Source of the DNA: Candidatus Omnitrophota bacterium
Lineage (GTDB): Bacteria > Omnitrophota > Gorgyraeia > Duberdicusellales > 4484-171
Assembly (NCBI GenBank): GCA_021735655.1
Contig: JAIPGM010000002.1
Coordinates: 128,001 to 192,000, forward strand
Reading direction: 5' to 3'
Length of the DNA stretch: 64,000 nt
In this document: one piece after another, positions 16,846-18,567 of the stretch
Position numbering within the stretch: position 1 is the first letter of the stretch
Layout: every line of letters starts with the position of its first letter
Notes under the pieces: model-generated
What the model saw: only the letters and a program-made list of their open reading frames with translations
Databases searched by the model: none
Told to the model about the DNA's origin: nothing
Position numbers and translations under genes: made by a program

Positions 16846-18567
16846 ATGCCAGAACAACCACCACAACCAGCTGTACCCGGAAAACCACCCGGCAAAGAAG
16901 CTCAATCAAGGAAAAAGCTTGGTGAAATTCTGATTGGGCAAAAGGTGATTACCGATGATATTTTGCGTCAGGCTTTGTCTGATCAGAAAGTAACCCATCA
17001 ACGTTTAGGTGAAATTCTGATTGAGCGTGGTTGGGTCAGGGCTGAGGAAATTAATATTGCCTTAGCTCATCAGATGGAGATTGAAACTGTAAGTTTATCC
17101 GATTACGTGATTGATCCTCAAATATTGTCAATGGTAACCGAAGAGGAAGCGAGAAAGCATAAATTAATGCCGTTGTTTAAAACCGGAAATTCCTTGTCGG
17201 TTGCAATGGCTAACCCGAATGATGTGGTTGCTATTGACCAGCTTAGACGCCAAACTAGTTTTCAAATAAATCCTTTGGCGGCAACCGAAGGCGATATTTT
17301 TTGGGCCATTGAACAGCACTATCAATCTTCCGGATCAGTCGATACAATGCTGGCTGGTCTTGATATCGAGAAATTGCAGAAAGGTGATTCAAAGCAGGAA
17401 ATGGCAATTTTAAAGTTAGTTAACATGTTGATTACTCATGCGGTTCATGAGAAAATTTCTGATATTCATATTGAGCCGGAAAAAAATACGGTTAATATTC
17501 GTTATCGTTTAGATGGGATGTTACATAAGCAATATGTTTTACCTAAAACTCTCCAGGGAGCAGTTACTTCACGAATTAAAATTTTATCGAATCTTGATAT
17601 TTCTGAGAAACGTCTTCCTCAGGATGGAAGAATCCGAATGCGGGTTGAAGGAAGGGATATAGATTTTAGAGTTTCAACTTGTCCTACGGTTTCCGGAGAA
17701 AATACTGTTTTGCGGGTACTTGACAAAAGTGGCCTGTCTTTAAGCTTGGAGGCTTTGGGTTTTCCGGGAAATGATCTTGAGCGGTTCAAGAAAATGTTTA
17801 CCTCTCCTTACGGGATAATTTTAGTAACCGGACCTACTGGTTCAGGAAAAACTACTACTCTTTATTCTGTGCTCCAACAATTAAATAATGAAGATGTTAA
17901 TGTCATGACCGTTGAAGATCCGGTTGAATATCAGTTTCATGGTATGCGGCAAGTGAGCGTAAACTCAGCAATTGGACTTACCTTTGCTGGTGCTTTGAGA
18001 AGTTTTTTGCGGCAAGATCCAGATATTATCATGGTTGGAGAAATTCGTGATCTTGAGACTGCTGAAATTGCTGTTCAGGCTGCCCTAACTGGACATTTAG
18101 TTTTATCGACCTTGCACACCAATGATTCACCTTCGGCTTTTAGCCGTTTGGTTGAGATGGGGGTTGAGCCATTCTTAGTATCTAGTTCTCTTTTAGGTGT
18201 TTTAGCCCAGCGCTTGGTGCGAAAGGTTTGCGATAAGTGTAAAGAAGAGTATGAGCCTGATGAAACCTTAATTAAAACTTTACGTCTTGAAGGTCAAATT
18301 AAACCCGGTCAGAAATTTGCTCGGGCCGTAGGCTGTAAGATTTGCAATAAGACCGGTTATAAGGGGCGCTTAGGTATTTATGAGCTTTTAGATAATACAC
18401 CGGCCCTTCAACCTTTGGTGCTTAGCCGAGCTCCAGCTAATGAAATAAGGGCTACTGCCGCCAAGGAAGGGTTAATTAGCTTAAGGGAGGCGGCCCTAGA
18501 GAAGCTTTTAGCTGGTCTAATTACGGTTGAGGAAATTTACCGGGTTACTCAAGAGGTTGAAGGATAA
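16846..18567 (+). CDS. pilB: Type IV pilus assembly / T2SS ATPase (PilB/GspE/MshE family) with an N-terminal MshEN-like tandem motif.
   Basis: Walker A GPTGSGKTTT, Asp box and Walker B. A tetracysteine CDKC...CKIC zinc motif. The N-terminus carries two tandem RLGEIL(I)..G.....L..AL..Q motifs (KLGEILIGQKVITDDILRQALSDQ and RLGEILIERGWVRAEEINIALAHQ), typical of the c-di-GMP-binding MshEN domain. Confidence 0.85.
   Translation: MPEQPPQPAVPGKPPGKEAQSRKKLGEILIGQKVITDDILRQALSDQKVTHQRLGEILIERGWVRAEEINIALAHQMEIETVSLSDYVIDPQILSMVTEEEARKHKLMPLFKTGNSLSVAMANPNDVVAIDQLRRQTSFQINPLAATEGDIFWAIEQHYQSSGSVDTMLAGLDIEKLQKGDSKQEMAILKLVNMLITHAVHEKISDIHIEPEKNTVNIRYRLDGMLHKQYVLPKTLQGAVTSRIKILSNLDISEKRLPQDGRIRMRVEGRDIDFRVSTCPTVSGENTVLRVLDKSGLSLSLEALGFPGNDLERFKKMFTSPYGIILVTGPTGSGKTTTLYSVLQQLNNEDVNVMTVEDPVEYQFHGMRQVSVNSAIGLTFAGALRSFLRQDPDIIMVGEIRDLETAEIAVQAALTGHLVLSTLHTNDSPSAFSRLVEMGVEPFLVSSSLLGVLAQRLVRKVCDKCKEEYEPDETLIKTLRLEGQIKPGQKFARAVGCKICNKTGYKGRLGIYELLDNTPALQPLVLSRAPANEIRATAAKEGLISLREAALEKLLAGLITVEEIYRVTQEVEG

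Follow-up and report, generated by a model that had tools for sequence, protein, structure and literature searches.

A predicted MshEN-type c-di-GMP receptor domain on the assembly ATPase of a pilus-like machine from an uncultured Omnitrophota bacterium, and the HD-GYP genes in its neighbourhood

Does the second messenger bis-(3′,5′)-cyclic diguanosine monophosphate (c-di-GMP) act directly on the principal pilus-like apparatus of an uncultured bacterial phylum? The question is raised by the gene at positions 16846..18567 of a 64,000-nucleotide stretch of DNA from a Candidatus Omnitrophota bacterium (contig JAIPGM010000002.1, positions 128,001 to 192,000; the whole stretch is called the window here), for which an initial annotation had proposed a PilB/GspE ATPase carrying two copies of the RLG-type motif of the MshEN domain at residues of about 23-75 and flanked by two HD-GYP phosphodiesterases. 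MshEN is one of the two truly widespread c-di-GMP receptor domains and its occurrence on PilB/GspE ATPases is textbook knowledge. A standard catalogued domain on a standard family adds no new principle, and the value of the case lies in its context, namely that c-di-GMP is predicted to control directly the main pilus-like machine in a phylum that is uncultured. Judging from the sequence, we consider it likely that the encoded protein works as assembly ATPase in a type IV pilus-like (or type II secretion-like) machine and has an MshEN-type c-di-GMP receptor as its N-domain, and very likely that this N-domain binds c-di-GMP. The gene and its parts are the following:

16846..18567, + strand: ATPase of the PilB/GspE family (pilus or secretion), MshEN domain at the N-terminus (open reading frame, ORF, of 573 amino acids, aa)
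16915..16986, + strand: MshEN motif I, K24-Q47, KLGEILIGQKVITDDILRQALSDQ (sequence parse, NF053729, 5HTL alignment)
16987..17001, + strand: spacer K48-Q52, KVTHQ, 5 residues (sequence parse)
17002..17073, + strand: MshEN motif II, R53-Q76, RLGEILIERGWVRAEEINIALAHQ (relaxed regular expression, NF053729, 5HTL alignment)
17077..17337, + strand: MshEN_C alpha/beta subdomain, aa 78-164 (Pfam PF05157, E 3.2e-20; the AlphaFold2, AF2, model has the expected strands and helices)
17392..18543, + strand: ATPase core, aa 183-566 (Pfam T2SSE, E 8e-135)

The span initially picked out, 16846..17080, corresponds to the first 78 codons of the ATPase ORF, and the tandem motif copies within it are real, although they run from residue 24 to residue 76 and not from about 23 to 75. 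The whole module measures 24 + 5 + 24 residues, 53 altogether (DNA 16915..17073), which is the layout defined for Vibrio cholerae MshE by Wang et al. 2016 (PMC5013675), where it likewise stands at the N-terminus of a pilus ATPase. The curated 53-position motif model NF053729 of NCBIfam (‘cyclic di-GMP-binding domain, MshE-related’; cutoff 38 bits) matched aa 24-76 over its positions 1-53/53 with 58 bits (E 6e-16), and aa 20-168 also gave a match (E 8.9e-20) to the model of NfrB, a glycosyltransferase that c-di-GMP activates. Since only 0.135 matches to the relaxed published regular expression (regex) are expected in a shuffled six-frame translation of the window, the tandem motif is not due to chance; the only other regex match in the window carries a stop codon. 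The spacer is 5 residues long in 81 of the 83 Omnitrophota homologues that the regex could parse. The Pfam model PF05157, in spite of its name ‘MshEN’, was dropped as a test of the motif and replaced by NF053729, because it spans aa 78-164 only, that is, the C-terminal subdomain off the binding motif, and a match to it by itself does not test the motif claim; the annotation precomputed by Pfam on an identical public protein lies at aa 78-164 as well.

Both motifs have Leu-Gly at positions 2-3 (L25-G26 and L54-G55) and the LxxxLxxQ residues at positions 17, 21 and 24 (L40, L44 and Q47 in motif I; I69, L73 and Q76 in motif II, where the Ile for Leu at position 17 is conservative). Motif II starts with Arg (R53), has the turn Gly at position 10 (G62) and fits the relaxed pattern and the extended consensus of 2024 provided that its Trp (position 11) and Ile (position 17) are admitted. 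In motif I the first residue is Lys (K24) and the tenth is K33. The RLG-type motif announced twice thus holds for motif II, whereas motif I begins with Lys instead of Arg and is devoid of the turn Gly.

In a phmmer search against PDB sequences, query residues 22-78 aligned gap-free to MshE residues 7-63 of 5HTL (E 1.5e-14), and further matches of the N-domain were Thermus PilF (E 3.9e-35), two Geobacter PilB sequences (E 1.6e-23 to 2e-23) and Myxococcus xanthus PilB (E 2.6e-21). Taking the roles of the contact residues from the MshE crystal structure of Wang et al. 2016 (PMC5013675), the equivalents in motif I (MshE in brackets) are K24 (R9), L25 (L10), G26 (G11), L40 (L25), L44 (L29) and Q47 (Q32), and those in motif II are R53 (R38), L54 (L39), G55 (G40), I69 (L54), L73 (L58) and Q76 (Q61); 10/12 are identical to MshE and the remaining 2/12 are conservative. 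Gly11 is essential in MshE, where the G11I mutant loses binding (Wang et al., PMC5013675). In both proteins basic residues form a patch ahead of motif I (R22, K23 and K24 here; K5, R7, K8 and R9 in MshE). Over the whole domain the identity to MshE is ~28%, and apart from the two Lys of motif I (for Arg at position 1 and for Gly at position 10) and I69 for L54, the ATPase differs from it by N123 in place of D108.

The conservation of the N-domain was read from an alignment of 64 Omnitrophota homologues with 58-87% identity, in which Q47 is invariant, G26, L29, L40, A43, L44, G55, G62, L73 and Q76 are conserved in at least 90% and the flanking residues are variable. The conserved N-terminal positions are those of ligand contact and helix packing, as would be expected of a binding site that is under selection, and across the phylum no part of the N-terminus is better conserved than the binding residues. 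Residues 1-172 were modelled with AF2 from 32 aligned sequences; the model had a mean predicted local distance difference test score (pLDDT) of 83.6 and contained helices at 25-31, 37-50, 54-61 and 66-76 and, after them, an alpha/beta unit. Its top PDB match was 5HTL, MshE with c-di-GMP (E 1.2e-11; template modelling score TMt 0.76-0.79; root-mean-square deviation 3.1-3.5 Å), and the c-di-GMP-bound GSPII-B domain of Thermus PilF (8PDK, PMC11731258) followed with TMt ~0.73. The N-terminus, whose comparison with MshEN had been proposed as a check in the initial annotation, is hence aligned to it by curated profile, by 5HTL sequence and by fold, with the contact Leu, Gly and Gln residues present.

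A Lys as first residue of motif I is not peculiar to this protein: among the 83 regex-parseable homologues the position is occupied by Lys in 59, Arg in 17 and Gln in 7. The domain GSPII-B in PilF, an assembly ATPase of the PilB type, has the corresponding Lys (K167 for K24 here) and, as here, a Trp after the turn Gly; it binds c-di-GMP with a dissociation constant (Kd) of 6 nM and loses affinity 25-fold upon the K167R exchange (PMC11731258). A position-1 Lys occurs also in CtPilB and DgPilB2, and the consensus has been widened to (R/K/L)LG... (Neissner et al. 2024, PMC11731258). By analogy, the Lys-type motif I predicts a high affinity. The likeness to PilF has its limits, as PilF has three tandem GSPII domains and the ATPase studied here one, motif II of PilF opens with Leu and falls short by one residue while the motif here starts with Arg and has the full length, and the pair D266/R268 that raises the affinity of PilF corresponds to N123/N125.

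By analogy with the characterized domains, each subunit would bind one c-di-GMP in the four-helix bundle. The guanines would each be held by the first side chain of a motif (K24 or R53) on one face and by a hydrophobic trio (L40/L44/L54 and L25/I69/L73) on the other, and Q47 and Q76 would hydrogen-bond the ribose-phosphate.

Regarding the remainder of the protein, the ATPase core contains the Walker A sequence GPTGSGKT, with G329-T338 invariant in the 64-sequence alignment, and a four-Cys cluster (C462, C465, C497 and C500) whose columns are invariant there too. A fold search with the full-length AF2 model returned matches to the ATPase core only, which resembles Geobacter PilB and Thermus PilF (TMt 0.85-0.89), and the N-domain was accordingly modelled by itself. 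The ATPase scored 623 bits with the PilB equivalog model TIGR02538 and 588 bits with the GspE equivalog model TIGR02533, under the cutoffs of 675.65 and 630.25 bits, respectively; from its sequence it is a member of the PilB/GspE family, in which the equivalog scores do not assign it to the type IVa pilus or the type II secretion subfamily. A protein collection search found an identical public protein (P0001) on a 322,746-bp contig of a Candidatus Omnitrophica metagenome-assembled genome (MAG), as well as thousands of homologues, whose organism-named top matches are all Omnitrophica/Omnitrophota or plain ‘bacterium’; a lookup of the exact ATPase sequence in a contig index gave no match. The public label ‘TadA’ of the identical protein conflicts with the PilB/GspE profile scores and looks wrong.

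The ATPase gene sits in a co-directional cluster that extends from 10513 to ~37061 and contains, together with it, secretin genes, at least three prepilin genes and the T2SSF and PilM_2 genes. The genes around the ATPase are these:

5708..6781 and 6841..7845, + strand: two paralogous pilin-like genes (N_methyl match; both N-termini FTLIEIVI), directly upstream of the CHASE2-HD-GYP gene described below
10513..10698, + strand: MerR-type helix-turn-helix gene of 61 aa at the head of the cluster (Pfam MerR_1)
13721..14488, + strand: secretin N-domain protein
14527..16830, + strand: secretin with a C-terminal extension rich in tetratricopeptide repeats, TPR (Pfam STN, Secretin_N, Secretin and TPR over this gene and the preceding one)
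18608..19300, 19375..19992 and 20295..20879, + strand: three prepilin-type genes (Pfam N_methyl, N-terminal sequences)
20957..23294, + strand: ATP-binding cassette (ABC) transporter ATPase and two ORFs, between pilin genes
24377..28586 and 32250..37061, + strand: giant LamG-repeat proteins of 423, 987 and 1603 aa (one, four and seven Laminin_G_3 domains)
28620..29819, + strand: platform protein PilC/GspF (Pfam T2SSF)
29821..31494, + strand: PilM-like protein (Pfam PilM_2)

The MerR-type gene at the head (MerR/HTH_17) is kept there in the loci L001, L003, L005, L009, L011, L014 and L015 of relatives, and the 61-aa protein is a candidate for a dedicated transcriptional regulator of the pilus cluster. 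It is followed by a CdsD_C-like protein, an 836-aa DUF5684 protein and then the secretin genes and the ATPase gene. Secretin domains are usually C-terminal; in the protein encoded at 14527..16830 the domain lies at aa 168-345 and is followed by ~420 Lys/Glu-rich residues with TPR repeats. An ABC module is also unusual within a pilus operon, and here the ABC ATPase and its two ORFs are kept inside the cluster in L001, L003, L007 and L009; the two ORFs encode proteins of 253 and 303 aa without Pfam match, the first of which has a hydrophobic N-terminus. Further pilin-like proteins and two of the LamG proteins precede PilC/GspF. The 423-aa LamG protein has a pilin-like N-terminus, the two largest ones have a common hydrophobic N-terminal segment, then QQGKGAEAYQLA, and the LamG-repeat proteins may be giant pilus-associated adhesins. 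Downstream of the cluster are the genes of valyl-tRNA synthetase (ValRS), NadC, UvrB, CoaX and GroEL, then a PAS-PAS-HD-GYP gene and then that of pyruvate:ferredoxin oxidoreductase. The Pfam scan of the window covered the sizeable + strand ORFs of at least 100 aa, the 61-aa MerR ORF and one - strand gene, and left aside short - strand ORFs nested in + strand genes; no GGDEF, EAL, PilZ or PilT gene was found among these ORFs of the 64 kb. Rfam gave only a tmRNA and a tRNA in the window, and no c-di-GMP riboswitch.

With this setting, the ATPase can be compared with systems in which a pilus ATPase is controlled by c-di-GMP. MshE differs from it in host and machine, which here are an uncultured Omnitrophota bacterium and an apparatus with a secretin and giant LamG proteins. 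The PilB proteins of M. xanthus and Chloracidobacterium thermophilum (CtPilB), which are MshEN-positive type IVa pilus ATPases (PMC6957770, PMC11656802), are alike in having a single MshEN domain followed by N2 and ATPase domains, the former also in having no Gly at position 10 of motif I and the latter in the Lys at position 1; the ATPase here differs from both in lying under the PilB equivalog cutoff, in having no PilT gene near it among the scanned ORFs, and in a cluster that is headed by a MerR gene and includes LamG giants and an ABC transporter. In Xanthomonas citri c-di-GMP is sensed indirectly, by FimX through PilZ, whereas the ATPase described here keeps the full direct-binding motif. 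The X. citri PilB N-domain, which has been solved with PilZ (7LKM, PMC8389850) and belongs to a PilB-PilZ-FimX regulatory unit (PMC8389850), resembles ours in its fold (TMt 0.71-0.72) and in that its pilus ATPase is under c-di-GMP control.

As to the breakdown of the signal, two genes of the window encode predicted HD-GYP phosphodiesterases:

8059..10329, + strand: membrane CHASE2-sensor HD-GYP phosphodiesterase, predicted, 756 aa, called HD-GYP #1 (CHASE2, E 7.5e-39; HD_5, E 6.9e-42)
45569..46921, + strand: cytoplasmic PAS-PAS-HD-GYP phosphodiesterase, predicted, 450 aa, called HD-GYP #2 (two PAS; HD_5, E 3.7e-41)

Both had been recognized in the initial annotation, and both descriptions stood: the former gene encodes CHASE2 and HD_5 domains with hydrophobic segments, and the latter two PAS domains and HD_5. 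The HD_5 scores are 143.5 bits (HD-GYP #1) and 141.1 bits (HD-GYP #2) at a Pfam cutoff of 27.2. In HD-GYP #1, CHASE2 covers aa 37-304 and the hydrophobic segments lie at aa 4-32 and 286-361, a layout that fits a sensor facing the periplasm and a catalytic domain in the cytoplasm. The catalytic motifs are intact in HD-GYP #1 (HDLGK at 623, HHHEDYDGCGYP from 675) and in HD-GYP #2 (HDLGK at 312, HHERIDGSGYP from 365), and both domains align over the full catalytic domain to PmGH and V-cGAP3. The Glu at the PmGH E185 column, the third-metal ligand, is absent and replaced by Tyr in both proteins (KDPYTEGHS, ~9790..9816; RDPYTFSHT, ~46370..46396), and since Tyr at E185 has been associated with two-metal enzymes that stop at the linear dinucleotide pGpG (Galperin and Chou, bioRxiv 10.1101/2021.11.05.467447), both are predicted to be two-metal enzymes with pGpG as product. 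CHASE2-HD-GYP is a listed architecture, with 18/19 Pfam cases judged genuine HD-GYP, and no HD-GYP with an extracytoplasmic sensor, those with CHASE2 included, has been experimentally characterized (bioRxiv 10.1101/2021.11.05.467447); here one member of this catalogued class is encoded within a pilus locus. In HD-GYP #1 the ~180 residues that separate the membrane segments from the HD-GYP domain have no Pfam match. A degenerate GGDEF-like domain suspected by eye at aa ~380-560 (9200..9740) gave no Pfam match even at E 10 and was rejected.

How closely the two genes belong to the pilus machine was judged from their position here and in relatives. HD-GYP #1 lies between the two pilin-like genes (5708..7845) and the MerR-headed cluster, and is at the same place in all relatives whose ATPase is at least 85% identical, namely L007 and L008 (ENA), L009 (JGI) and L001 + L012, an NCBI MAG whose copy of the gene is divided between two contig ends. 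Pilin-like homologues are found at the matching position in L007, L009 and L012, and the genes farther upstream differ between these relatives. A scan of a genome collection for relatives of HD-GYP #1 returned one locus, in the same MAG as L001, and so gave no independent test of the linkage. HD-GYP #2 is adjacent to GroEL in the window (43809..46921). In L005, whose ATPase is 62% identical, the pilus cluster sits directly between GroEL and a PAS-PAS-HD-GYP-like ORF (17912..18175) that ends at the contig edge and shares 59% identity with HD-GYP #2 over its first 75 residues, being a probable orthologue of it by sequence; this orthologue beside the cluster is the only tie of HD-GYP #2 to the pilus. 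As the cluster is inserted between GroEL and HD-GYP in L005 and not in the window, it seems to have been relocated between lineages, and the comparison of the two orders shows that its HD-GYP neighbour is not the same one in every lineage. The picture of an ATPase flanked by two HD-GYP genes accordingly held for HD-GYP #1, embedded in the pilus locus with its position kept in the closest relatives, and not for HD-GYP #2, which lies beyond ValRS, NadC, UvrB, CoaX and GroEL; likewise, the distance of 8 kb given for the latter is right if counted from the end of the cluster at 37061, and is 27 kb from the ATPase.

In more distant Omnitrophota other c-di-GMP modules stand beside the orthologous cluster. 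A PilZ protein, a response regulator and an MshEN-PilZ fusion are encoded upstream of it in L013 (3960..6685) and L014 (1..1623), L013 having in addition a histidine kinase and a second MshEN-ATPase with its own T2SSF, and in L015 a CheR protein with a weak ComFB match is encoded downstream (20257..20371); ComFB-CheR fusions in Omnitrophota are mentioned in the ComFB receptor paper. These recurring but shifting modules are anecdotal, yet they support the pilus as a c-di-GMP output in the phylum, and because distant Omnitrophota carry them beside the same cluster, c-di-GMP control of the pilus is likely.

Taken together, these data may be arranged in the following mechanism. Binding of c-di-GMP to the ATPase would favour pilus extension or stabilize the enzyme, as has been described for MshE, PilF and the PilB of M. 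xanthus, and by analogy with these would do so without a direct change of ATP turnover. HD-GYP #1 probably senses an extracytoplasmic cue and cuts c-di-GMP to pGpG, by which the occupancy of the receptor and pilus assembly would be lowered, while HD-GYP #2 probably acts on the general c-di-GMP pool. That environmental signals gate fibre assembly through the second messenger, as first proposed, is a reasonable inference by analogy. For a specific coupling of HD-GYP #1 to the pilus machine the chances come close to even, and for HD-GYP #2 they are far lower.

Several observations weigh against this mechanism, some concerning the receptor and some the wiring of the locus. At position 10 of motif I, the one position at which the relaxed regex ([GAS]) failed, K33 takes the place of a Gly (G18 in MshE, with G47 as its counterpart in motif II) that Wang et al. 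(PMC5013675) describe as needed for the alpha1-alpha2 turn; such a Lys is limited to the five closest sequences, and Gly is present in 73/83 homologues. The non-binder PilF GSPII-A, which has one degenerate motif, and the X. citri PilB N-domain solved with PilZ scored nearly as well as 5HTL in the fold comparison, for which reason the fold confirms the domain family and only the motif speaks to ligand binding. In the C-subdomain, N123 stands for the guanine-contacting Asp (D108 in MshE, D266 in PilF), a contact that is dispensable in MshE and contributes ~4.5-fold in PilF (D266A). Furthermore, c-di-GMP barely alters the in vitro ATPase activity of MshE or CtPilB. The N-domain might have the MshEN/GSPII fold without binding c-di-GMP, motif I being degenerate via K33, and serve as a structural or docking module for a PilZ-type adaptor or the PilM platform. 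However, M. xanthus PilB carries Asn at position 10 of motif I in the phmmer alignment and, according to a review (PMC11656802), binds c-di-GMP by way of its MshEN domain, and the AF2 model places a turn/loop at residues 32-36 with high confidence, so that we treat K33 as a caveat and not as a disqualification, and both deviations of motif I, K24 and K33, appear to be tolerated according to published work on other proteins. The direct contact residues are kept in both motifs at the most conserved N-terminal positions, the NF053729 score is 20 bits over its cutoff, and GSPII-A is far more degenerate, with 45% identity at the key positions of its motif II. We thus regard a non-binding N-domain as improbable.

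The wiring of the locus is more open to dispute. The gene of HD-GYP #1 is absent in relatives with an ATPase 74% (L003), 66% (L011) and 62% (L005) identical, and its adjacency to the cluster could for this reason reflect recent shared ancestry instead of selection. The 183-bp gap between it and the MerR gene holds the best promoter-like match of the region, so that it may not be co-transcribed with the cluster, although the counts in the promoter and terminator scan of 7800..17000 did not exceed shuffle expectation and the match has little weight. No diguanylate cyclase was found among the scanned ORFs of the 64-kb window. It is a serious possibility, somewhat short of even, that the ATPase binds c-di-GMP and the HD-GYP genes are uncoupled from it, acting on the global pool or another target, with their proximity as a side effect of how genes are ordered in a compact genome; HD-GYP #2 is set off from the cluster by five identified housekeeping genes, and MshEN-type receptors, with Kd values from nanomolar to sub-micromolar, can read a global pool. 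Against this stand the position of HD-GYP #1 between pilin-like and machine genes, kept in four independent assemblies while the upstream genes vary, and the recurrence of differing c-di-GMP modules beside the orthologous cluster across the phylum. A further alternative changes the ligand, in that the HD-GYP enzymes would cut 3′3′-cGAMP (cyclic GMP-AMP) and not c-di-GMP, the locus being part of a cGAMP circuit. Among PDB sequences, the one best matched by both HD-GYP domains is indeed that of V. cholerae V-cGAP3 (5Z7C; E 1e-41 for HD-GYP #1, 2.7e-34 for HD-GYP #2), which is cGAMP-specific and has the Tyr at the E185 position in common with both, and MshEN is described in PMC5013675 as binding cGAMP weakly. 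The c-di-GMP-specific PmGH (4MCW) matches almost as well, however (E 1e-39 and 6.7e-30), most tested HD-GYPs hydrolyse c-di-GMP, Tyr at E185 also marks c-di-GMP enzymes producing pGpG (bioRxiv 10.1101/2021.11.05.467447), and the receptor motif is of the c-di-GMP-specific type, MshEN preferring c-di-GMP (PMC5013675). A cGAMP circuit is therefore very improbable.

Omnitrophota are ultra-small, possibly host-dependent bacteria. A broader proposal, which we put forward tentatively and hold to be rather doubtful, is that their pilus machine with giant LamG proteins is under locus-wired c-di-GMP control, exerted by CHASE2-HD-GYP here and by PilZ, MshEN-PilZ, PAS-HD-GYP or ComFB-CheR modules in other lineages, in which an outside cue would switch pilus-mediated attachment by draining c-di-GMP from a high-affinity MshEN receptor of the Lys type. 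If true, it would be the first natural setting that assigns a function to the uncharacterized CHASE2-HD-GYP class, for the study of which a sensor of this kind in a pilus locus offers a concrete output. A Lys-type motif and this sensor-phosphodiesterase class in a pilus locus of an uncultured phylum make the case mildly interesting.

Elsewhere in the window there are a tmRNA gene (52542..52899; tag peptide ATPYVATSPVGLG) and a tRNA-Met (CAT) gene (53866..53939). Almost all sizeable genes are on the + strand, the sole confirmed - strand gene being that at 50951..52363. The GC skew is positive in every 2-kb bin, and the window therefore probably lies on one leading-strand replichore.

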